Below, piece by piece: positions 47,984-59,947 of a stretch of 64,000 bases of DNA. Below the pieces are notes generated by a model. The model saw nothing but the letters and a program-made list of their open reading frames with translations, searched no databases and had not been told where the DNA came from. Numbering within the stretch: the stretch's first letter is position 1; every line of letters begins with the position of its first letter. Where the stretch lies: positions 1 to 64,000 of the IMG/VR virus record IMGVR_UViG_3300046008_000478; one strand, given 5' to 3'. The DNA is from a virus. The translations under genes were made by a program, and so were the position numbers.

Positions 47984-50900
47984 ATGAGCATCCTCGACAA
48001 CACTGCCATTGAACAACAGCTACTGGCCATGGGCGAGAAAAAGTCCGCCGGAGATGCGCCAGCCGCGCCCAGGTCCGACAGCGCAGCCAGCGGGCCACAA
48101 GCTTTTGTTCAGCGGTATGCAGACCTTGCCGCAACCACCGGGGCAAAGCTCGGTGTGGCGCCAGAAGTTCTGCTTGGTCAATGGGGGCTGGAGACAGGCT
48201 GGGGCAAGAGCATCATCCCGGGAACCAACAACCTGGGCAACATCAAGGGTAAGAATGGCCCCATGGCCACCGACAACCAAACTGGCTCGCGTGACTCCTA
48301 CCGGGCGTATAAGGACGACGCTGATTTTGGCAATGGCTTCACTGCATTTATCGGAAACTCAGAGCGCTACCAGGGCGCCCTGAATTCAGGCGCAGATGCT
48401 GGCGCGTACTTCTCTGCCCTCAAGAAAGGTGGCTACGCAGAAGACCCCGCCTACGTGCAAAAGGGTGTAAGCGCAACTCGTCTTGCGTCACAATTCCTGG
48501 GTGGGCGTGCTCTACCTGCAGGGCAGGTGAGTGCAACGGAGGCGCCAACCGAGGCTCCGCAGTACCACTGGGGTGCACAAGATGGTCCAACGCGCACCGT
48601 TGCCACTAAGCCAGCCAGCTTCGCTGAAAAGGCGGCAGACACCGCTATTTCCCTGGGATCTGGGTTGCTTGGTGGCGCCAAGAGTTTGACGGATGTATTT
48701 GGCGCAGACAACTCCGCATCACAATTTCTTGGCGAGCAATCCAAGAATGTTGACGGTTACACATCGGATGAGCGCAAAGCGGAGCGCGCAGCCAGTCAGG
48801 AAAAGATCAAGCAAGCTGAGCTGTACGGTTCTGCATGGGATGAGATCAAGGCCAACATCAGTGCATTTGCAGATGCCCCCATTGACATCGTAGTGGGCGC
48901 GGTTGGATCCAGTGCCCCAACCCTGTTGAGCATGTTCATTCCGGGGCTTGGTCAAACTGCTGCTGCACGCCTGGTGATGGGCGGGATTATGGGTGCCGCA
49001 CAGGGGACTGGCGCTGGCAAAGGCAGCATCTACGAGGCTGTGGAAAATAAGCTGCTGGAGTCCGGCATCGACCAGGACACAGCAAAGAAAACAGCGGCGG
49101 CAGCGCAAGCATACGACGGCCAGAATGGCGGAATGATCGCAGCCAACGGAATCATGGGCACCATCGCTGGACTGACTGGTGTCGAGGGCTCGCTCGCCAA
49201 AATACTGGGAAAGAAGGTCGCAGAAGGCGCCGCAGAAAAAGCAGCCCCTGGACTGATTAAAACTTTTGCTAAGGGTATTGCGCAGGAGTCCCCAATAGAA
49301 GGTGCCCAAGGCGGCCTTGAGCGAGTCTCTGGGAATGTTGCTCTGCAAAACCAAGGGTACGACACTCCAACATTCCAAGGGGCTGCCGGACAGGCGGCTA
49401 TGGAAAGCTTGGCATCCGCACCAATGGGTGGCGGCTTTGCTTTGCTGAGTCGCAACGGCCAGCCAGCCGGCCCAATCACACCACCCAATCCACTGGAGGA
49501 GGCAGCCAAGGCGCCTGGCGCTGTACTGTCGCGCGCAGCCATTGCGCCGGATGACATCGCCCAGCGCGCCCATGAGATTGAAGGCGAACTCAAAGACAGC
49601 GGCGGCATGCAGGCCCTGCGCTCCATTGGTGCACAACACGTTGCCCCATTCCTAGAGGCCCTGTCGATTGCCAAGGACAAGCGCCTGCCGGCAGCCGCGC
49701 GCCAGGAAGCACTGGACACCATCAACCTGGGCATGCAGTGGATGGCTGACGGCAAGACCGCGGACCAGCCAGGCAATGGATCTCCATTCAGCACCAGCTT
49801 GGTGACGCAGTCAGCACCCACTCAGCCGGGCACGGACCTAGCCACCACAGCGGGCGGAGCCCTGACCAATCCTGGCATGCCGCAGGCTTTCGATCCCAAC
49901 ACGATCGATGGCGAGGTCACGCGCGTGGACAACATGCTGGATGGCCCCAAGGCATTGCCGGCGCCACCAGGCCCAGCACTCACCAATCAAACAACTCAGA
50001 CGCCTGCACCCGCAGGCGTTTCTACTTCTGCACCACAGGAAATCACCAATGTCACTCAAGCCCCTCAGTCCAAGCAAGCAGCGCAAGAAGGACAAGAAGC
50101 ACCCGCAGCTGCCACCCCAGCAGTAGACACTGCGCGCACGCAGGTTTCGGCGCCCAAGGTATCTATACCCACTGGCAAGGGAACAGCTCAGTCACGAAAG
50201 CGCCGGGCCCAGCTCGATGCCATGGTTGTCAGCGGATTCGACACGGTGGAGCGCCGCGACGATGGCTTCTACCTGATCAACCACAAGTCCAACGAAGAGA
50301 TGCGCCTGGATGGCATGGGTGACGCGCAGACTGCCCGGGTAGCCATTAAATTCAAGATGGATGCGGACTCGCACGTAGCGCCATCATCCCCTCTGAATGA
50401 CAAGAAGGCGCCTTCCGAGGCTCAGATTGAGGCCGGCAACTACCACAAGCCAGTCACATCAATCAACGGCTTCAAGGTCCGTATTGAGAACCCCAATGGG
50501 TCAACCCGAAGCGGCACCTCGCCCGATGGCAAGAAGTGGTCCAGCACCATGGCCGCCCACTATGGCGAGCTCGAAGGCACGCTGGGCGCAGATGGCGACA
50601 AGGTCGATGTGTTCATTGGCAGCCGCCCGGACAGCGACAAGATCTATGTGATCGACCAGAAGAACAAGGACGGCAGCTTCGACGAGCACAAGGTGATGAT
50701 GGGCTACCAAAGCCTGGAAGCCGCCAAGGCCGGCTACCTGGCCAATTACGAAAAGGGCTGGACCGGGATGGGCGCCGTCACCGAGATGGGTGTGGCGGAG
50801 TTCAAGGCCTGGGTGAAGTCGCAAGAGGCGCTGAAGCCAGTGGCGTACACTGACCCCAAAACAACAGGGGTAGAGAATGACGAACGAGGATCTGACGCAG

Positions 50901-53900
50901 CAGGCGCTGGACTGGATACGCAATCGGAAGGAATCACTGGAGTCAGCAGCAGCACTGGAGAAGGAGTGCGGAATCCAGCTTCGACAAAGGGGGCTGGATC
51001 CACTGGATCTTCCGGAGCCACTCAGCTCGATGGTAATGAAGCTACTGTCGCAAGAAACGCAGAGCTCCTAGCTCGGGTACGAAGCGCTATTGAGGGGCTG
51101 CGCGCTCGGTATCAGGCGCAGCTCTCCGTCGCAAGTACCGATGCGGAGCGTAAAAAACTCCTGCACGAAATATCTCGACTCCCCGATGTAAACGACCCTA
51201 GTGGAGAGTTGCTTCAGGGGTACTCAAATGTTGCCTCTGCATGGGAGCGCGCTTTTGGTCAATCCGTTGGTGCTTATGTAGACGGAAGGTCGTCGGCAGA
51301 CGATGGCTTCCAGATGGGAAGCGATGCACTCGTAAACCTGCTTAACCAACAGATGCCATTGCAGTGGACGATGGCCCATGAATTCAAGCACTTGAGCGAG
51401 TTTGTGCCGAGCCTGAAGAAGCTGTACGACAGAATTTTCAGCCTCATCCCACAGGGTGCGCGGTCAGAATACCTTAGCTATCTGCACCGTACAGGCCAGG
51501 CGTCCACCAAATCTCTCGATGCGGCCACTGCCGCGGATATCGCCAAGCTGCGCCAAGAGATGGTTGCAGACTTCCTTGGGCAGCGCTTTACCGACAAGGC
51601 TTGGCTTGAGCAGCTTGCAAAGCAAAAGCCAAATCTTTTTGGTGAGTTTGTCCGCGACTGGTTGAGCATACTCAACAACGCCATACACGAGCTTATTTCC
51701 GCACTGTCAAAGGGGAATAACCCAAAAGACATTGACCGACTGATGCTGGGTCATCTGAAGCAGCTCCAGGAGATGAAACTACTGGCGGTTGATGTGGCTA
51801 CAGAGTGGGCAGAGCGCAACCCAAGGATGTCAAAGAGCACAGGCGCAAGCGAAATACTGCATAGCTCCCGCATCGACTCCATCAACGAGCTCGGCAACCT
51901 CAACCTGGACGCCATGTCTATCGATGAAGACCTGGACATGGTCGAGTTCCTGAAGGCGCAGGCGGAGTTTGATGCACAGCGGCCAGCAGCCAAGGTCGAT
52001 CCCAAGCGCGGCGGGCCGGTGCAGCCGCGCGCGGATATTGCCGATGCCGAGATCCAGGCGCATGGCCTGGCGGCCGAGGATGCTTATGGCGACGCGACCT
52101 GGGTGCATACCCACAAGTCAGCCGTCATGCTGAACACCACGGCCCGCAACCTGTACAAGCAGGGCGACGAGTCCCGCATCGATCTGCTGCAAGAGCAAGA
52201 CGGCAAGTGGGGCACCGAGGGTGGCATCCGCGGCACCTGGGTCGGCAATGACGGCATGTCTACCGGCGGAACTACCAGCCTGAAGATGGCTCAGAAATTC
52301 GTCAGCCGATTCATTGCGTCCAAGGATTTATTCGCACGCAAATTTGACATTGCGCAGACTTACTCCAGCGCATCCAGGGCCAACCTGCTGAATGCCTGGA
52401 ATGCCTTGAACAAGATGGATGGCGTGCGCAAGTATGCCAAGGCCGACAAGACAGCCATGTCCATGAAGGACATCGCGACCCAGTTGGGTGTGACGAAGTT
52501 CTATGACGTGTCCACCTTCACTGAGCGCCAAAGCCCAACCGAATCATTCCTGATGGTTGAATTCACCAACAAGGAGACGAGCGAAACCCAAGAAGCCAAC
52601 CTGACCATCGAGAAGGATGGCGACCAGCGCTTTGCCACCGCCCACACCGGAGCATTGAACCGCAACGGACTGGGCGGCGCCTTCTACCAGATGGCTGTGG
52701 AGTACGCTGCACGCAACCGGCTGGTGATTCGGCCTGATGATTCGCTGTCTGGCGTGAACACCTACCGGCGCACCGAGCAGATGCTGGCGTCCGCTATGCG
52801 CTCGGGAAAGTCCAACATCATGGTTCCGCATTCGGTGCAGCGGGTCTACGGATTCCAGAACGATGCCAAGACGCAAGATGAGCACGATGACAACGTAGTG
52901 CGCTTGCTGCTGGCCGGGCTGCGCAACGCACGCGAGCTGGCGCCTGAGATGGGGCTGCTGAACTACCACCCTGAAACCGACACCTTCACCCTGAAGAATG
53001 GGAAAGATGCGACCGGAATTGTGGATCGCATGCTGGCCAACGAGGATGCTCGTGCATTTGGCCTGGGCCGCAGTACCCTGGCGCGCGCCGTGCTGACAGA
53101 GATGGCATTGCTTGGGCAGTTGGACGTCAAGTCCATCCAGTCCATCGGAACCCCGCTCTTGTACAGCGCCCGCGAGGATGCTGAGCTGGAATACAAGCTG
53201 GTCGAGGACCAGTACAAGGGCACGCCTCAGTGGATGAAGGCGCCAGATGGCAGCCAGACACAGCTCACCCAGCGCCAATGGGTGCAGGTGCGCACGCCTC
53301 AATTCAAGGAATGGTTTGGCGACTGGGAAAAAGCCCATGCTACCGGCGGCGTCTGGGCAACAAAAGAAGATGTGTCCAAGGTCGTGGGCTCAGATGGTGA
53401 GCCTCTGGTGGTTTACCACGGGACCGACAAGGGCGGATTCATGGCGTTCAACCAGCCCGGCGGCACCAAGCGCGGCGACCTGGGAGTCTTCACGACCAGC
53501 AATGAAGGCATGGCTCGCAGCTATGTCCGCAAGGGTCGGCCGCAGGATATGACGCCACCAGTTGGGCTAGGCGACCTGGAGGAAATTGGCTACGCTTTTG
53601 AGCAAGGATTCCGGATCGATGGTGACTTCTACGATAGCGAAGAGGAGGCTCGCGATGCGGCGCAAGAGGGGGATGTGATTGCTCCAGCTGTGCGCGCCAT
53701 GGATATTGATGGCTATTTTATAGATGGGCCACGGGAGACTGGTCATTTCTTTGCAACCATGGACGATGCGGTGGAAGAGGCGCTTGGCTTGTACGACGGA
53801 GCAACCGGAATCTCCACAATTTACGCCGCCTTCGCCAACATCCGCCACCCAAATGAGACCAATTTTGAAGGCGCACTCTGGGGTGGCGAGCGACCAGAGC

Positions 53901-56900
53901 AGTACGTTGTATCGATTGATGGGGATCTGCAGTCGCGCGCGGATGGTAAGCAATACTTCACCCGAGAAGAGGCCGAGGCGTTCGCCAAAGAGCATCCCAA
54001 CCCACTCTACCAGGATGACGATGGCAGTGACTACATCGAGCCAGCTCAAGACCACTACCAAACCACCGACGACGCAGTGCGCGAAGGCCTGAAGCATGGC
54101 CACGACGGCACGATCATTCGCGAGGTTATTGATGACGGCGGCGGAATTGGCTACGACGACATGCCTTCCGATGTGTTTGTGGCCAACAAGCCAGAGCAGT
54201 TGAAGTCGGCAGACTGGAACACGGGTGAGTTTGGATCGTCGGATGACCTGCGGTACAGCGAGAGACTCATCGAAGCATCGTCAGCGCAGCACCAAATGGA
54301 GATCGAAAGGGAGGAGAGGGAGATTGCCGCCACCACTCGATTGTCTGCCGCAGAGCAGAGCTCCATCGCCATCGAGGCTGAACTCATTGGCATACCAAAA
54401 AGCAAGCTTGAGCTTGAGGTGCGTCGTATTAAGGCGCAGTTCCCAGCATCTGCGGGCTGGGCGCCCATGGAATTCGACAAGATCAATAAAGCCGAGTACG
54501 CCAAGAGGGGCGTCCTGATAATGCGCACTGTCGAGTTCAAGAAACAGCCTTACGATTTCCATCTTGGGCGCGATGGAAAGGACGACACGTCTACACACAA
54601 CAAGCGGGTGACGTCAGTTGCCAAAGGCATAAGTGACGAGATTATTGGACTGTCCAACAAGGCTAAACAAGGTGACAAGAACGCGCAAATCACCATGGAC
54701 CAGATTGGCTGGTACAGCAAGGTAGCCGCCATGTTGCACCATCAGTTTGGCGGCTTCGCAGACTTCCTTGCTCAGCTCATGGGGCCAACCAGCGCCAATA
54801 CGCCAGTGGAGGGCAATGTCAAGTACGCTATGTCCGCACTCAAGTCGGCAATGTCTGGCAAGTGGGATGGCCTCATCGCGGACACAATACGCTGGAATGA
54901 AGGCGTCATGCAAGCGGCTGCCGGATTGGATGCGGTGATCGATGCTAATCGCGCAAAACCCAAGGCAGAGCGCCTGACCGGGAAAGCTTTAGCTCAGACC
55001 GTGGAGTTCAAGGATGCCATGGCAGTAGTTGCAGCGGCCGCACCCTATCAAGGAGAGGTGCCACAGCAAGATAGCGGAGCTAAATTCGGCATGGCCACCC
55101 AGGGTGTTGTAGAAATACTGGCTGGCATTTGGAGTGACTTCCAGCGCGGTGATGCACCCAAGACCAAGAACTACTACCAAAACCTGATTGGCCGCCAGTT
55201 CACCGGCGCCACCATCGACGTCTGGGCGGCGCGCACGCTGCGCAGAATGGCTGGATTGCTGCGCCTGCCAACGTCGGCAGAGAAGGGCGTCGCTGGCAAC
55301 ATTGGGGCCAAGCTAACCCCGGGCGCGGAGTTTGGCTTCGGGCAGGAGGCGTTTGTTAAGGCTGCTGAAAACCTGCGCAACTCAGGCATTGAGGAATTTG
55401 CCAACACCACGCCGGCTGATGTGCAGGCGATGATTTGGTTTAGCGAGAAAGAGAGTTGGGCTCGCAGCAACTGGACCACCAAAATTGGCGAAGGCGGCTC
55501 TGCTGAAGCAGAATTCAATCTCCAGGGCAATGCCGATCGAGATGGACTGGAGGATGCGCGTAGGATGGCTCGCAAGGGACTGCCTCACACCGGAAGCACC
55601 AAGCCAAACAAGACGGAGGAGGGCGCCCAACAAGCATCCATCAATGCTGGCGTGGGGCAATTCCCATCCGCCCGCGAAACCCCTCAGTACAAAGAACGCC
55701 TGGCGAAAATCATCGCCAAGGCGGTGCGCGCCCGCAATGAAGCCCGCGTGCAGTTTGAGTCCATGCGCGGCGCAGCCGACCGCTGGATTGCTGGGGTGAC
55801 CCCGGCCACGGACTTCACGCCAACGGACGCCACCATGGCCGAGGTTGGCGCAGAGCTGGAGTCAAAGGTTGCCATGGGCGAAGATGCCCACAAGGTCTTG
55901 GCATTCAAAGCGCTGCCGACCATGGGTCGTTACGGCTATGACGAGCGCTCCATTGACTTCGAGGGCGTCACCCGCCAAGGCTACAACGGCGTCGATATGC
56001 TGAAGCCGCTGCTTGAATTAGCCAAGGACAAGGCGCAGGATGGCCTGCTGTTTGGACGCGTCTTGCGCGCGGATGAGGATATCGACTACCTGCGGCACCG
56101 CCCTGGCCTTGAACTCTATCTGGCTAAAGGCACAACGATGGAGAAGGCGCAGCCACTGCTGGACAAGCTCACGGAACTTGGCTTCCAGCAGTTCACATTC
56201 GTGGTGGATCCAGTGCGGACCCCGGGCGCCTTATCCGGCAAGATGGGGGATGTTGTTGGCCTGCGCTACATCTTCACTCCGGAATTTGCGTTGCGCGAAC
56301 CCAACCCTGAGTACGGCGGCGACCAGACTTGGGCGCCTGGAGCCTTGACCGATGACCAGATCCGGGGCAGAATGTTAGCGAAGGCTGATGAGCTGCATGG
56401 CCTCTCTGATGACCTACAAATGATTGCAGGCGTTTCCTCTGTTGAGAGGCGCCATTACGAGGCTAATGTTTATTTTTGGGGTGATTATGACAACGCAATT
56501 GCAAGACTTGGAGCGAGGGCTGGAAATAGTGACTCGGAAAAATCATGGAGCGGACAGCCCTTACGCTCAGGGCTTGAGGGCGCAGATCGCCGCCGCGAAA
56601 TGGACTCAGGCTCAGAAGACGCAAAGTCCTTCGCAGCTCGAAGAGACGTACTTCGGGGGGACTCGGAGCCAGCCTTCAGCCGCCGGGACGAGGGATATAG
56701 CGGACGGGATGGAGCGGATGGCTCGGTCTCGATTAAAGGAGCTGTCCACTACGGACGGCAAGCAGGCCTAAGCGTACTGTCCGGGTCCTCTAGTGGGACC
56801 GGAATCAAAGGCGCAGAGCAAGACCGCTTGAGTGCACCAGGAGTAGACCCCCGCATCAAGCGCCGGGTCTATTTTTACATCCCAACATCAGTCGGAATTC

Positions 56901-58219
56901 CCCAGTCAGAGATTGGACTTGGGGCGCACGTCTACATGGCAGACCTGGACGGCCTGTACAACCCGCACACCACCACCAAACCTATTGCCAAGTCCGGCAA
57001 TGCGCTCGAAACGGCTGTGCTGGATGCTGGATACAAGGGATATGTAAACCCAGAGCAGGGATCCATTGTGGTGCTGGACCAGGATGTTCCAGTGAGGTAC
57101 GCTGGCATTAGCTCGCAGCACGCCATTACTCCGCGCGTGGTGCAGCGGGTGCAGCAGCGCATCATGACTCGCCTGGAGCGCTCCGAGCTGGTGCGCAAGC
57201 CGGTCGGCAACGAGATGCTGCAAATCATCGGGGCACGCGCGGCCATCGATGCCGCGGCCCCATCGTTCAAGCTGCAGTATGGGGATGCCCGGGTAAATCA
57301 GGATGAATCTGCTGCGGCAGATGGCGCCCTGGCCTCCGCCGGGTCGACCTTTCAGTTTGGCGAGGCGCGCTACAGTGCCCGCGACCTGGGCTTCTACTCT
57401 GAGCTGTCAGCCCAAATGGACAAGGCCACCATGAAGCAGGCCCCGGCCGGAGCATGGAAGTCGTTCATCGGCGCCCTGGCCCAGAAGGGTGTAAAGAAGG
57501 ATGAGGTCGAGTGGACCGGCATCAATGACTTCCTGGATCTCCAGGAGGGCAAAGTGTCCAAGGAGCAGATCCAGGAATACCTGCGCGGCAATGGCGTACA
57601 GGTGGAGGAGGTTGTGCTCGGAGATGAGCCGGCAATCAAGACAGTTGAGGCTGCCAAGAAGTATCTGCTTGAAAGATTCAAGGAAGATCCGGAAGAGCGC
57701 TATGGGTACAGTGATGATGCGGACTACATCTCAATCGCCAATGAGTGGCAGCTTGGAGACACTGGCCCCAACAGCGTATCAAAGTACCACCAGTACACCC
57801 TGCCTGGTGGCGAGAACTACCGCGAGGTGTTGCTGACGCTGCCTCGTGAAGATGATAAGACCAAGTCCGCGAAGGCTGCATTTGAAGAAGCCAAAAAGAA
57901 ATTTGATACAGATGGGTCGCAGCCCAACTACTTCAATCTGAAGATGGCAGAGATGGATCTATCAAGCGCCCAGCGTAACGTTGGGGGAGCGTACAAATCA
58001 AGCCATTGGGACCAGAAGAACGTCCTTGCCCACATCCGCCTGAATGACCGCACCGATTCGACAGGAGCTCGCGTACTTTTTGTAGAAGAAGCGCAGAGCG
58101 ATTTTCAGCAGGACTACCGCAAGTCAAAAGAAGCAGTTTCCAAGGCTGTTGAAAGTGACTTCAATGGGATAATTGAGCGCATGAAAAAGGCTGGTGTTTT
58201 GGAGGTGAATTGTGATTAA
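47984..58219 (+). CDS. Giant polyvalent virion protein, N-terminal part (3411 aa)
   Basis: FlgJ/glucosaminidase muramidase, inorganic-pyrophosphatase-like, HExxH, GNAT-like, ADP-ribosyltransferase-like (VVYHGT) and other modules. Confidence 0.88.
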   Translation: MSILDNTAIEQQLLAMGEKKSAGDAPAAPRSDSAASGPQAFVQRYADLAATTGAKLGVAPEVLLGQWGLETGWGKSIIPGTNNLGNIKGKNGPMATDNQTGSRDSYRAYKDDADFGNGFTAFIGNSERYQGALNSGADAGAYFSALKKGGYAEDPAYVQKGVSATRLASQFLGGRALPAGQVSATEAPTEAPQYHWGAQDGPTRTVATKPASFAEKAADTAISLGSGLLGGAKSLTDVFGADNSASQFLGEQSKNVDGYTSDERKAERAASQEKIKQAELYGSAWDEIKANISAFADAPIDIVVGAVGSSAPTLLSMFIPGLGQTAAARLVMGGIMGAAQGTGAGKGSIYEAVENKLLESGIDQDTAKKTAAAAQAYDGQNGGMIAANGIMGTIAGLTGVEGSLAKILGKKVAEGAAEKAAPGLIKTFAKGIAQESPIEGAQGGLERVSGNVALQNQGYDTPTFQGAAGQAAMESLASAPMGGGFALLSRNGQPAGPITPPNPLEEAAKAPGAVLSRAAIAPDDIAQRAHEIEGELKDSGGMQALRSIGAQHVAPFLEALSIAKDKRLPAAARQEALDTINLGMQWMADGKTADQPGNGSPFSTSLVTQSAPTQPGTDLATTAGGALTNPGMPQAFDPNTIDGEVTRVDNMLDGPKALPAPPGPALTNQTTQTPAPAGVSTSAPQEITNVTQAPQSKQAAQEGQEAPAAATPAVDTARTQVSAPKVSIPTGKGTAQSRKRRAQLDAMVVSGFDTVERRDDGFYLINHKSNEEMRLDGMGDAQTARVAIKFKMDADSHVAPSSPLNDKKAPSEAQIEAGNYHKPVTSINGFKVRIENPNGSTRSGTSPDGKKWSSTMAAHYGELEGTLGADGDKVDVFIGSRPDSDKIYVIDQKNKDGSFDEHKVMMGYQSLEAAKAGYLANYEKGWTGMGAVTEMGVAEFKAWVKSQEALKPVAYTDPKTTGVENDERGSDAAGAGLDTQSEGITGVSSSTGEGVRNPASTKGAGSTGSSGATQLDGNEATVARNAELLARVRSAIEGLRARYQAQLSVASTDAERKKLLHEISRLPDVNDPSGELLQGYSNVASAWERAFGQSVGAYVDGRSSADDGFQMGSDALVNLLNQQMPLQWTMAHEFKHLSEFVPSLKKLYDRIFSLIPQGARSEYLSYLHRTGQASTKSLDAATAADIAKLRQEMVADFLGQRFTDKAWLEQLAKQKPNLFGEFVRDWLSILNNAIHELISALSKGNNPKDIDRLMLGHLKQLQEMKLLAVDVATEWAERNPRMSKSTGASEILHSSRIDSINELGNLNLDAMSIDEDLDMVEFLKAQAEFDAQRPAAKVDPKRGGPVQPRADIADAEIQAHGLAAEDAYGDATWVHTHKSAVMLNTTARNLYKQGDESRIDLLQEQDGKWGTEGGIRGTWVGNDGMSTGGTTSLKMAQKFVSRFIASKDLFARKFDIAQTYSSASRANLLNAWNALNKMDGVRKYAKADKTAMSMKDIATQLGVTKFYDVSTFTERQSPTESFLMVEFTNKETSETQEANLTIEKDGDQRFATAHTGALNRNGLGGAFYQMAVEYAARNRLVIRPDDSLSGVNTYRRTEQMLASAMRSGKSNIMVPHSVQRVYGFQNDAKTQDEHDDNVVRLLLAGLRNARELAPEMGLLNYHPETDTFTLKNGKDATGIVDRMLANEDARAFGLGRSTLARAVLTEMALLGQLDVKSIQSIGTPLLYSAREDAELEYKLVEDQYKGTPQWMKAPDGSQTQLTQRQWVQVRTPQFKEWFGDWEKAHATGGVWATKEDVSKVVGSDGEPLVVYHGTDKGGFMAFNQPGGTKRGDLGVFTTSNEGMARSYVRKGRPQDMTPPVGLGDLEEIGYAFEQGFRIDGDFYDSEEEARDAAQEGDVIAPAVRAMDIDGYFIDGPRETGHFFATMDDAVEEALGLYDGATGISTIYAAFANIRHPNETNFEGALWGGERPEQYVVSIDGDLQSRADGKQYFTREEAEAFAKEHPNPLYQDDDGSDYIEPAQDHYQTTDDAVREGLKHGHDGTIIREVIDDGGGIGYDDMPSDVFVANKPEQLKSADWNTGEFGSSDDLRYSERLIEASSAQHQMEIEREEREIAATTRLSAAEQSSIAIEAELIGIPKSKLELEVRRIKAQFPASAGWAPMEFDKINKAEYAKRGVLIMRTVEFKKQPYDFHLGRDGKDDTSTHNKRVTSVAKGISDEIIGLSNKAKQGDKNAQITMDQIGWYSKVAAMLHHQFGGFADFLAQLMGPTSANTPVEGNVKYAMSALKSAMSGKWDGLIADTIRWNEGVMQAAAGLDAVIDANRAKPKAERLTGKALAQTVEFKDAMAVVAAAAPYQGEVPQQDSGAKFGMATQGVVEILAGIWSDFQRGDAPKTKNYYQNLIGRQFTGATIDVWAARTLRRMAGLLRLPTSAEKGVAGNIGAKLTPGAEFGFGQEAFVKAAENLRNSGIEEFANTTPADVQAMIWFSEKESWARSNWTTKIGEGGSAEAEFNLQGNADRDGLEDARRMARKGLPHTGSTKPNKTEEGAQQASINAGVGQFPSARETPQYKERLAKIIAKAVRARNEARVQFESMRGAADRWIAGVTPATDFTPTDATMAEVGAELESKVAMGEDAHKVLAFKALPTMGRYGYDERSIDFEGVTRQGYNGVDMLKPLLELAKDKAQDGLLFGRVLRADEDIDYLRHRPGLELYLAKGTTMEKAQPLLDKLTELGFQQFTFVVDPVRTPGALSGKMGDVVGLRYIFTPEFALREPNPEYGGDQTWAPGALTDDQIRGRMLAKADELHGLSDDLQMIAGVSSVERRHYEANVYFWGDYDNAIARLGARAGNSDSEKSWSGQPLRSGLEGADRRREMDSGSEDAKSFAARRDVLRGDSEPAFSRRDEGYSGRDGADGSVSIKGAVHYGRQAGLSVLSGSSSGTGIKGAEQDRLSAPGVDPRIKRRVYFYIPTSVGIPQSEIGLGAHVYMADLDGLYNPHTTTKPIAKSGNALETAVLDAGYKGYVNPEQGSIVVLDQDVPVRYAGISSQHAITPRVVQRVQQRIMTRLERSELVRKPVGNEMLQIIGARAAIDAAAPSFKLQYGDARVNQDESAAADGALASAGSTFQFGEARYSARDLGFYSELSAQMDKATMKQAPAGAWKSFIGALAQKGVKKDEVEWTGINDFLDLQEGKVSKEQIQEYLRGNGVQVEEVVLGDEPAIKTVEAAKKYLLERFKEDPEERYGYSDDADYISIANEWQLGDTGPNSVSKYHQYTLPGGENYREVLLTLPREDDKTKSAKAAFEEAKKKFDTDGSQPNYFNLKMAEMDLSSAQRNVGGAYKSSHWDQKNVLAHIRLNDRTDSTGARVLFVEEAQSDFQQDYRKSKEAVSKAVESDFNGIIERMKKAGVLEVNCD
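50877..51071 (+). CDS. Candidate nested +1-frame small protein
   Basis: AGGGG SD 7 nt before ATG; globular helical sequence while main frame is S/G/T linker. Confidence 0.45.
   Translation: MTNEDLTQQALDWIRNRKESLESAAALEKECGIQLRQRGLDPLDLPEPLSSMVMKLLSQETQSS
56487..56771 (+). CDS. Candidate nested +1-frame small protein
   Basis: GGGGTGA before ATG; MTTQLQDLERGLEI...HGADSPYAQGLRAQIAA; main frame R/G/S/D linker. Confidence 0.45.
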   Translation: MTTQLQDLERGLEIVTRKNHGADSPYAQGLRAQIAAAKWTQAQKTQSPSQLEETYFGGTRSQPSAAGTRDIADGMERMARSRLKELSTTDGKQA

Positions 58220-58892
58220 AAAGTTCTTTGTCTACCAGCACAAAACAGCAGACACCTTGACGGTTTTCTATATTGGGAAAGGGTCGCTAAAAAAAGGTGG
58301 CTTTGATAGGGCGTATGTTTCAAAGAAGCGCAGTAAATTCTGGCAGGCCATTGTTGCAAAGCATGGTCTTGTTGTTGAAATTCTTGATTCATTCGACACA
58401 GAGCAAGAGGCTTTTGAATCAGAGCGCCAGTTAATCTCCTTGCACAAGCGCCGATCTGACGGAGGGACATTGTGCAATATGACTCTCGGCGGAGATGGTC
58501 ACTTGGGATTAACAGCATCGCCAGAAGCAAGGGCCAAACTTAGCGCCGCATTGTCTGGCGAGAAGCATCCGAACTGGGGCAAGAAACTATCAGCAGAAAC
58601 GTGCCGCAGAAAGTCCGAGTCGCTAAAGGCCAGTCCCCACAATCTCAAGGGAAAGAAGTTGCCTGATTGGTGGAAGTCTCGTATTGCTGCAACGAAGGTT
58701 GGCGAACTCAATCCTATGTATGGCAAGACCGGGTCTGCGAATCCAAACAGTCGCAAGGTGCGCGATGCTGGAACTGGCCGCATTTATGACAGTGTTCTTA
58801 TTGCAGCTGATGCCAATGGCTACAAAATGAAAACACTTTACAACTGGCTATCAGGTCACCGACCAAACCCAACCTCACTGGAGTTCGCATAA
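58212..58892 (+). CDS. GIY-YIG homing endonuclease with NUMOD3-like repeats
   Basis: FVYQH...VFYIGKG...RA...E..LI...LCN.T.GGDG; GEKHPNWGKK, GELNPMYGK. Confidence 0.88.
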   Translation: MIKKFFVYQHKTADTLTVFYIGKGSLKKGGFDRAYVSKKRSKFWQAIVAKHGLVVEILDSFDTEQEAFESERQLISLHKRRSDGGTLCNMTLGGDGHLGLTASPEARAKLSAALSGEKHPNWGKKLSAETCRRKSESLKASPHNLKGKKLPDWWKSRIAATKVGELNPMYGKTGSANPNSRKVRDAGTGRIYDSVLIAADANGYKMKTLYNWLSGHRPNPTSLEFA

Positions 58893-59947
58893 TGGCCTGC
58901 CAATACACCTACAAAGGAAGCACCTATGAAGCGTGGGAGTTTGAGGACGTCTTAAAGGCAATGTCACCATCTGAGGCCTCCGCCTTCATTCCTGGAGTGA
59001 AGTCAGTTCCAGATGCTCCATTCACCCAGAACACGCAAGGCTGGCTGAACCTGGCACTCAAGCGCGTCATGAAGCTGGCGGTGGATGGAGGCTACGACAA
59101 GGTGGCATTCGTGAATGGCGAGCAGTCTGCGGATCGGTACAGCCTATCTAAGTCCGTCGCAAAAGTTGATTGGTACAAAGCGCAAAGCGAGTACGGCACA
59201 AGGATTGTCGAGATCGAAACCACGGCGGATGATACGGCCATGCTGTATGTTGATGATGCCGGATTGATTGTTAGGGTTGGCTCGCGTACCGCCGCCTTGA
59301 AGCAGCTTCAGGGTCGCCAGCTAGACGAGGCGCTCGGAAAGGACTTTGCTAACAAGGTCTTGTCAGAAGACGATGGCAGCTCCAGCGGGGATGGACTGAA
59401 CATCGGCGGCGAAGGCATGAAGACCTTCTACAACTCCATCGTGCCCAATGCCGCCAAGGCCTTACTGAAGAAGCTGGGTGGCGGGCAGATGGAGTTCGTC
59501 AAAGGCATGACGGCCGACAAGCAAGGCTGGCACATCACCGACCCATCCAACACCACCACCGGTAAGTGGATGCTCAAGAGCAGCGACTACAACTCAAAAG
59601 GTTTGCACTTTGACACTGAAGCCGCGGCCAAGGAGGCGCTTGCAGAAAAGCAAGTGAAGCTCAGTCAGCCAGGATTCACCATCACCGACGCCATGCGCGA
59701 GAAGGTGGGCAACGGAATGCCACTGTTCAGCATGCGTGACACCCAGGCGCTGGATGCGGAGCAAGCCCACCAGGACGACGCTCCGGCTACTCCAAAGGCC
59801 AGGAAGTACGCCGGCGCCAAGGTGGACATCCAGGTGAAAATTGAGGACACGGGCGAGGTGGCAACCCTTAGAATGGATGTACACCAAACGATTGACGACT
59901 TTGATAGCCGTCAAGCAAACATGCAGACGCTGCTGGATTGCCTGTAA
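58892..59947 (+). CDS. Giant polyvalent protein, C-terminal continuation
   Basis: VPDAPF...W..LALKRV...A...GYDKVAF.NGEQ.ADRY, GMKTFY..IVP, F.ITD.MREKV..G.PLFS. Confidence 0.8.
   Translation: MACQYTYKGSTYEAWEFEDVLKAMSPSEASAFIPGVKSVPDAPFTQNTQGWLNLALKRVMKLAVDGGYDKVAFVNGEQSADRYSLSKSVAKVDWYKAQSEYGTRIVEIETTADDTAMLYVDDAGLIVRVGSRTAALKQLQGRQLDEALGKDFANKVLSEDDGSSSGDGLNIGGEGMKTFYNSIVPNAAKALLKKLGGGQMEFVKGMTADKQGWHITDPSNTTTGKWMLKSSDYNSKGLHFDTEAAAKEALAEKQVKLSQPGFTITDAMREKVGNGMPLFSMRDTQALDAEQAHQDDAPATPKARKYAGAKVDIQVKIEDTGEVATLRMDVHQTIDDFDSRQANMQTLLDCL

Follow-up and report, generated by a model that had tools for sequence, protein, structure and literature searches.

A GIY-YIG endonuclease gene between two cysteine-tipped peptides interrupts a predicted GNAT-like domain of phage polyvalent proteins: a probable mobile docking cassette

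Introduction

How can a homing endonuclease gene sit in the middle of a protein domain, with neither an intron nor an intein around it, in a phage that appears to keep the domain? The question is raised by a locus in the IMG/VR record IMGVR_UViG_3300046008_000478, a 79-kb phage contig from lake-water metagenomes, whose first 64,000 nucleotides (nt) constitute the stretch analyzed here (the window). A giant open reading frame for a polyvalent protein (ORF A) is followed there by a free-standing GIY-YIG endonuclease gene, and then by a shorter ORF B; the last part of A and the first part of B make up, in relatives, one continuous domain. A ends in a peptide of about 33 amino acids (aa), and B begins with a peptide of 38 aa, each with a cysteine next to its tip; they are called the tail and the head below. 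An initial annotation, made from the letters of the window, had proposed that tail, endonuclease, and head form a mobile unit and that the two peptides dock the halves. Our analysis makes it probable that this is indeed a mobile cassette of ~0.9 kb, inserted in a hypervariable loop of a GNAT-like domain, with the two arms docking the halves of the split protein. The cassette itself is well supported; covalent rejoining of the halves is speculative.

Gene layout at the break

Everything that had been read directly from the sequence, i.e. the ends of the ORFs, their overlaps, the Shine-Dalgarno site, and the absence of intergenic bases, was reproduced. The features of the locus are as follows.

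47984..58219, plus strand: ORF A, a polyvalent protein of 3411 aa with the Pfam domains Glucosaminidase, InPase, LPD37 and ART-PolyVal
57281-58108 and 59006-59500: the interrupted domain (L060:2191-3543 in an unsplit relative), which belongs to no Pfam family; a GNAT fold with large insertions is predicted
58109..58216, plus strand: the tail, QDYRKSKEAVSKAVESDFNGIIERMKKAGVLEVNCD, predicted to form a long helix and then a short strand with Cys at its end; about the last 33 aa are specific to the cassette
58201..58207, plus strand: GGAGGTG, within the tail codons for L-E-V, the Shine-Dalgarno site of the endonuclease gene
58212..58892, plus strand: the free-standing GIY-YIG endonuclease gene, 226 aa, with a GTG start; its first 8 nt are shared with the end of ORF A, stop included, and its last nt with the ATG of B
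58880..58883, plus strand: GGAG, the likely ribosome-binding site of ORF B, inside the last endonuclease codons (L-E-F-A)
58892..59005, plus strand: the head, MACQYTYKGSTYEAWEFEDVLKAMSPSEASAFIPGVKS, 38 aa, a predicted Cys-started β-hairpin and helix
58892..59947, plus strand: ORF B, 351 aa, with ...LLDCL as its last residues; the head is followed by the C-terminal half of the GNAT-like domain and by one more module

The N-terminal half of the GNAT-like domain occupies the last ~250 aa of ORF A, whose C-terminal stretch reads ...EEAQSDFQQDYRKSKEAVSKAVESDFNGIIERMKKAGVLEVNCD and whose terminus is ...VLFVEEAQSDFQQDYRKSKEAVSKAVESDFNGIIERMKKAGVLEVNCD (last residues GVLEVNCD), with the TAA stop at 58217-58219. 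The endonuclease ORF begins at GTG 58212, within TGTGATTAA, and its own TAA (58890-58892) shares a base with the ATG of ORF B, so that zero intergenic bases are left; the N-terminus of B is MACQYTYKGSTYEAWEFEDVLKAM...VPDAPF, with MACQYTY as the first residues.

The AT-rich stretch noticed at the outset is real: the tail (G+C content 0.43), the endonuclease gene (0.48) and the head (0.51) all lie below the remainder of gene A (0.58), and a shallower dip spans ~57.56-59.43 kb. Short contigs from a second lake-water study match 57.2-59.0 kb, a range that takes in most of the endonuclease gene, and show zero differences. Read joints skipping 57843-59405 were considered as possible endonuclease-free variants and discarded, as their sides are only 30-35 nt long and probably come from other polyvalent genes.

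The endonuclease

The middle ORF is a GIY-YIG/NUMOD3 homing endonuclease, as indicated by matches to NUMOD3 in Pfam (E-value 4.5e-14) and to phrog_314 in PHROGs (E-value 1.1e-25). The GIY-YIG family itself, PF01541, matches eight of the twelve endonuclease homologues (best E-value 4.8e-6), among which Y8, Y20, R33, E71 and N89 are invariant. A single-sequence search of PDB returned zero matches, and the profile search produced weak matches only, to the GIY-YIG chains 9u75 and 1yd6.

In its build the protein resembles I-TevI and the Seg-type endonucleases, with a GIY-YIG catalytic domain, NUMOD3, and a C-terminal helix-turn-helix-like region; it also shares with them the presence or absence among close relatives, the flanking tracts of altered ancestry, and the tight translational coupling to neighbors. 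Unlike them, however, it is neither borne by an intron nor placed between two different genes: it interrupts a single domain and is always flanked by the same two coding arms.

The interrupted domain

The C-terminal 312 aa of ORF A match 8117 representative clusters, and in more than 100 homologues E-x-QSDWGQ-x-GKKKGF and [VI]P-x-APF occur in one chain. The linker between the E-x-QSD and VP-x-APF motifs is hypervariable, 15-194 aa in length. Searches of Pfam and PHROGs gave no family for either half or for the tail and head regions, and Pfam had no GNAT match on the halves.

Structure modeling was more informative. An unsplit member of the family, L060 (alignment A9), folds with a mean predicted local distance difference test score (pLDDT) of 83.5 and a predicted template modeling score (pTM) of 0.75. 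The top 50 VIA matches of this model are all GNAT acyltransferases (Z 6.6-7.9, ~110 aligned residues, root-mean-square deviation 2.9-6.8), and the Foldseek rows listed for it are all acetyltransferases. Most of the VIA matches extend over model residues 83-451, that is, over both halves. On the strength of this model, the interrupted domain of polyvalent proteins is predicted to adopt the GNAT fold, and because the GNAT-like match covers both halves, the cut would be placed in mid-fold, in a hypervariable loop that tolerates insertions. The initial view that the two motifs belong to one continuous domain thus stands, given the single-chain homologues that carry both and the GNAT-like match of the unsplit member across the halves. 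The conserved loop VP-x-APF-x-x-T-x-GW is located before a long helix. Split alleles retain the family-invariant residues of both halves, which argues that the split domain is still functional.

Among the top 50 structural matches are two toxins that acetylate tRNA, TacT and AtaT. In the Dolichospermum phage Dfl-JY45 (L002, XAI97106), a single protein of 2388 aa has two unsplit copies of the GNAT-like domain. As a side result, a very large unannotated domain of polyvalent proteins, that of the clusters counted above, is placed, by prediction, in the GNAT fold.

An unsplit orthologue and an imported tract

The closest view of the insertion is provided by P0146, a protein of 3988 aa in which A and B are a single chain. 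It is 77% identical to A across 3400 aa; its residues 3680-3988 align with residues 38-351 of ORF B, and the last 23 residues of the two proteins, both ending in ...LLDCL, have one difference. In place of tail, endonuclease, and head, P0146 holds an unrelated helical linker, and aligned to uninterrupted homologues in general, tail and head are absent both from P0146 and from more than 100 other unsplit proteins. Along the alignment, identity to P0146 changes as follows.

The 300 aa upstream of the N-half core: 77.5%
57563..58108, plus strand, N-half core: 49.4% (G+C content 0.52 vs 0.58)
Tail and head against the P0146 linker: 25.8% over 62 aligned positions, no homology
59006..59425, plus strand, C-half core: 45.9%
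Rest of B, after 59426: 89%

The divergent tract, ~57563-59425, is centered on the endonuclease gene and is nearer to other split alleles, with 56-59% identity to P0147, P0150 and P0152; the C-half core is nearest to that of P0004, another split allele (58%). Break repair that copies an endonuclease gene together with its flanks is known as co-conversion (PMC2988022). By its sequence, the tract looks imported along with the cassette, and the pattern is the one expected of co-conversion.

Tail and head peptides

The borders of the two arms were set by pairs of split and unsplit proteins. Split P0037 and unsplit P0108 are nearly identical for ~190 aa from residue 39 of P0037 (IPEAPF) onward, so that the head comprises residues 1-38. 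Split P0174 and unsplit P0246 share 72% identity up to ~8 aa past QSD, where the likeness stops; hence a tail of ~33 aa. Both figures agree with the ~35 aa per added end estimated initially.

The tail consensus, ...KAVD-x-DF-x-GI[VI]-x-RMK-x-AGVL-x-V-x-C[DE], ends 59 of the 150 best relatives of ORF A, and the head consensus, MACRYTY[KQ]GKTYEA[WH]EF[ED]D[VL]L, opens more than 30 relatives of ORF B. Tails begin with (Y/F)(R/K)K. Cysteine is the second-last residue of every tail seen, and is found at residue 3 in every head seen (residue 4 in the variant MAHC); this also holds for sets collected without regard to Cys.

Pairwise differences at codon positions 1, 2 and 3, in 13-14 loci, are 0.30, 0.23 and 0.63 for the tail, and 0.21, 0.15 and 0.56 for the head. 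Judging by this codon-position pattern, strong purifying selection acts on both peptides, and third positions are near saturation; the arms would therefore be translated, old and constrained, and not merely DNA that was recently co-converted.

Mixed alignments of tails and heads in MAFFT (A5 and A7) were misaligned and were dropped in favor of A6. MAFFT repeatedly matched the helix of the tail ([DN]F-x-GI[VI]-x-RM) with that of the head (EF[DE]D[VL]L-x-AM), and this shared motif could hint at a connector that is internally duplicated or pseudo-symmetric.

Recurrence of the unit

The genomic context of tails and heads was drawn from scans of IMG/VR and JGI. Fourteen distinct loci came with DNA, and in twelve of them (the window, L003, L004, L007-L012, L016, L018 and L023) a homologous GIY-YIG gene of 179-250 aa stands between tail and head. 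In most loci the endonuclease gene starts within TGYGAYTRA, and its end overlaps the start of B as TAATG in every locus but one. The 3' junction, TGGAGTTCGCATA followed by ATGGCCTGC, is conserved at the DNA level across the endonuclease-bearing loci; most of these also keep the GGAGGT-like site, which is lost in L005.

L005 and L006 have tail and head without the endonuclease, with gaps of 11 nt and 81 nt, respectively. The 81-nt spacer of L006 is in frame with both ORFs and opens with GTGATTAAAGACTGA, resembling the first four endonuclease codons. The same locus (L006:5548-6330) has lost the GNAT-like core on either side of the junction, and tail and head are intact: in A, the early part of the domain leads directly into the tail, and in B the head is directly followed by GGVPLFSRR. 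As the arms are intact in the absence of the core, they seem to join two polypeptides, rather than merely to restore an enzyme.

A tree of the C-half core, built from 25 split and 70 unsplit rows with the head excluded, requires 19 changes of the split state, compared to a mean of 22.4 with shuffled labels, and at least three changes are forced by well-supported branches. One reading of this tree is that the cassette is transferred from allele to allele, and the other is free recombination of the flanks around it. The proposed unit of helix and Cys tail, endonuclease, and Cys and hairpin head is real and recurrent, and patchy on the tree of its flanks, a distribution that a mobile cassette would be expected to have. 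No unsplit protein contained a continuous tail-head sequence, and a pattern scan of IMG/VR for tail and head contiguous or at most 33 nt apart gave no locus, which, the pattern being strict, is weak evidence.

A model of docking

How the two arms might meet was approached with a read-through construct, P0282, in which L006 is read across its single in-frame TAA, giving tail, 28-aa spacer, and head. The AlphaFold model of this construct (alignment A6) has a helix at 79-114, a strand at 118-122 (LEVEC), a disordered spacer, strands at 154-158 (CRYTY) and 161-164 (KTYE), and a helix at 165-173, with pLDDT of 77-85 in the tail and 73-81 in the head. The LEVEC strand and the CRYTY/KTYE hairpin are the sole strands of the model. 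As it offers no other partner, the tail strand is predicted to pair with the head hairpin, and an antiparallel register would set the two cysteines side by side. A complex prediction for the C-terminus of A and the N-terminus of B, with alignments, scored 0.57 vs 0.81 for a control. Fold searches with the junction model gave weak helical matches only (Z<=5.3), and no known fold could be named.

The sequence of events that we propose is the following. The endonuclease would cut alleles that are free of the cassette, and repair would copy the cassette in, with flanks of variable length; in the present phage the imported tract would be that of ~57.56-59.43 kb. A and B would then be translated separately, and tail and head would pair into a small three-stranded sheet, holding together both polypeptides and, with them, both halves of the domain. 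The near-terminal cysteines, side by side, may form a disulfide in an oxidizing environment, such as that of the released virion.

Other cysteine-tipped junctions

If the pair described above is designated type I, two more kinds of Cys-tipped junctions can be recognized in polyvalent genes, in keeping with the initial prediction that such pairs would occur elsewhere with other inserts or with none. At type II junctions, a tail ...EFMDILERLDDAGLVKINC(K), ending at the stop, is followed by a ferritin-like gene (PF00210, E-value 5.7e-18), and then by a head MA[D/E/EN]C-x-YTF-x-TA-x-GEVTI-x-GMAEMKAFLALNG, which stands ahead of ART-PolyVal or other modules. The termini of one such pair are ...DDAGLVKINCK and MADCTYTFKTAEGEVTIKGMAEMKAFL..., and the stop of the ferritin-like gene overlaps the next start (ATGGCTGA). 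The junction is found in L041 and in 17 IMG/VR loci (18 in total), with a constant gap of 493 nt in the latter.

L041:3700-4400 and L087-L103 (e.g. L087:4743-5300): type II ferritin-like gene, ~163 aa, nested between polyvalent pieces

Two proteins, P0206 (492 aa) and P0257 (1172 aa), have a type II head at the start and a type I tail at the end; from these termini, they are middle pieces of polyvalent proteins encoded in at least three genes.

At type III junctions, a tail ...L[IL]-x-CL(x), again ending at the stop, is followed by M-x(1-5)-C[LM]-x-[IL][VI]-x-x-M...DQD. These ends adjoin in L004:1797-1810 and L061:1797-1807, with gaps of 9-12 nt. The present genome has them too: ORF B ends in ...RQANMQTLLDCL (59900-59947), and the next polyvalent piece opens with MTTKCMEIVNKMADEDQD at 66330, beyond the window, so that the two ends are 6.4 kb apart, with structural-looking genes between them.

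These observations allow a broader hypothesis, which is tentative and in our opinion rather doubtful as yet, namely, that polyvalent proteins of phages, which are probably injected, generally use Cys-tipped pairs as modular connectors. Genes would be nested at the breaks, the pieces would be clipped together by pairing of strands or helices, a disulfide would form in the virion and be released in the reducing cytoplasm of the host, and such a connector would have the endonuclease cassette as one of its mobile carriers.

Weighing the docking cassette against alternatives

Several points count against a mobile cassette with docking arms. Docking, though plausible, is only a prediction from one AlphaFold model, that of P0282, which is an artificial single chain with a mean pLDDT of 51.7 and pTM of 0.46 over its whole length. 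Complementary charges of the kind seen in the Aeh1 system (see below) were sought in tail and head, and were not found; isoelectric points are 6.3 and 5.6, respectively. A disulfide is unlikely in the cytoplasm, and stapling would therefore need to occur outside of the cell. Cleavage of cassette-free alleles, and with it a target site, is something that we infer from the polymorphism of presence and absence and from the divergent flanking tract. The scatter of split alleles on the tree could be obtained by ordinary recombination without homing, polyvalent genes being highly mosaic. Finally, the docking pair may be older than the endonuclease and independent of it, since L005, L006, and the type II and III junctions are without an endonuclease.

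The last two points can be combined into the alternative that survives best, although it seems to us unlikely on the whole: the Cys-tipped pair would be an older, general connector between separate genes, spread by ordinary recombination, and the endonuclease would have settled later in the gap. Free-standing endonucleases often settle in small gaps between genes. Besides the two loci that have the pair with gaps of 11 and 81 nt, this scenario would account for type II pairs around a ferritin-like gene, for type III pairs that directly adjoin, and for the combination of a type II head with a type I tail in P0206 and P0257; the strong mosaicism of polyvalent genes also fits. It has more difficulty with the occurrence of the same endonuclease family in 12 of the 14 type I loci, with junctions conserved down to the DNA, and with the divergent tract of the present phage, which has the endonuclease gene at its center. 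The start of the L006 spacer suggests loss of the endonuclease, not its primary absence, and the failure to find continuous tail-head sequences in unsplit proteins or, with the strict pattern, in IMG/VR also speaks against it.

Less likely still is that the two products act apart, with the arms being retained not for docking but as expression signals, as protection from self-cleavage, or as signals for capsid targeting or ejection. It is true that the tail DNA contains the ribosome-binding site and the start of the endonuclease gene, and that the last codons of the latter contain the ribosome-binding site of B; L006, moreover, keeps the pair and lacks the enzyme core, so the pair is not needed there to rebuild the domain. 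Signals of this kind, however, would not explain why 33-38 aa are conserved as protein, also in loci without the endonuclease, when synonymous sites are near saturation, nor why paired Cys-tipped ends occur at three types of junctions. Both halves keep their invariant residues, and the predicted fold spans both, so that they must meet in order to function.

An even smaller chance is given to the ligation of the halves into one peptide-bonded chain, by an unfamiliar cysteine-dependent reaction or by trans-splicing. The near-terminal Cys is invariant in tail and head alike, and the gene layout matches that of "fractured genes" with split inteins (PMC2677866). The arms themselves do not fit such a role: tail and head together make ~70 aa, below the size of a Hint fold, and the residues outside of the cysteines (D in the tail, MA in the head) vary in number among junction types. 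Split inteins have an N-terminal part of ~100 aa that starts with Cys or Ser, and a C-terminal part of ~35 aa that ends with His-Asn, followed by Cys, Ser or Thr. Here, the start of the tail is not a nucleophile, the Cys of the head (MAC) is not preceded by His-Asn, and Pfam has no intein or Hint match at E<=0.01; a split intein was rejected on these grounds, given arms of 33 and 38 aa.

The production of a single protein by RNA splicing (group I or II intron) or by ribosome hopping, with the last Cys codon of A as take-off site and the first Cys codon of B as landing site, can practically be dismissed: Cys codons are present on both sides of the insert, and T4 gene 60 illustrates that a bypass element can be part of an endonuclease cassette (10.1101/2022.08.31.505936; PMC2988022), but an Rfam search (cmscan) of 57500-59700 at E<=10 detected no intron, only two chance rows of small RNAs, there is no non-coding space, the arms have codon periodicity, B has a ribosome-binding site of its own, the gap is 672 nt as compared with the 50-nt bypass of T4 gene 60 (10.1101/2022.08.31.505936), and the stop is one codon past the putative take-off codon, not adjacent to it. 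The negative results with Rfam and Pfam agree with the initial annotation, which had seen neither intron nor intein.

Relation to known systems

The nearest precedent is the nrdA-a/mobE/nrdA-b locus of phage Aeh1, where AT-rich tails that arose with the mobE insertion are essential for the assembly of split NrdA (Crona et al. 2010, PMC3045599). Crona et al. proposed that such tails may be a general antidote to gene fragmentation (PMC3045599; reviewed in PMC2988022). The principle that the initial annotation put forward as a third route besides RNA and protein splicing is not new, having already been published for NrdA and mobE (PMC3045599). The likeness is considerable: in both cases a free-standing homing endonuclease splits, within a functional domain, a gene that is continuous in relatives, both products have unique AT-rich terminal extensions absent from unsplit homologues, and neither RNA nor protein splicing is involved. 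The differences are also clear. The Aeh1 endonuclease is of the HNH type, and the present one is GIY-YIG. The Aeh1 tails had no database match, and their authors expected tails to be idiosyncratic and undetectable by similarity (PMC3045599); here, in contrast, the tails form a conserved family across dozens of diverged alleles, with invariant near-terminal cysteines and predicted pairing of strand and hairpin, are not charge-complementary, and persist where the split domain has been deleted. Tail function was shown biochemically in Aeh1, whereas here it is predicted from sequence and model. What is new, then, is the conserved, portable form of element-derived tails, the general principle being already known from Aeh1.

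Two other systems are related in logic. In "fractured genes", the order is the same, i.e. half, rejoining element, endonuclease, rejoining element, half (Dassa et al. 2009, PMC2677866), but the rejoining element there is a split intein; the present arms lack Hint motifs, and any rejoining would not be protein splicing. In T4, mobA and gene 60 also provide an example of a homing endonuclease that travels with an accessory sequence making insertion into a host gene tolerable (PMC2988022; 10.1101/2022.08.31.505936). The accessory sequence of gene 60 acts on the ribosome, via a 50-nt coding gap, whereas here it consists of peptides made by translation, with an entire gene in the gap. In the founding paper on polyvalent proteins, there is no mention of split, intein, homing or cysteine.

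Conclusions

Element-derived tails are represented here by a rule instead of a single case: the same two peptides are found across dozens of diverged alleles, where they travel with one endonuclease family. If our interpretation is true, tail, endonuclease, and head would be a self-contained "cut and reconnect" cassette, a third "antidote" beside self-splicing introns and inteins, and the pair of peptides could serve as a small (~35 + 35 aa) heterodimerizing tag, perhaps switchable by redox state, for split-protein engineering. If the wider connector hypothesis also were true, any gene could be nested in a giant gene, be it an endonuclease, a ferritin-like gene, or as much as 6.4 kb of structural-looking genes. 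It would then be necessary to read many large phage proteins as multi-gene assemblies.

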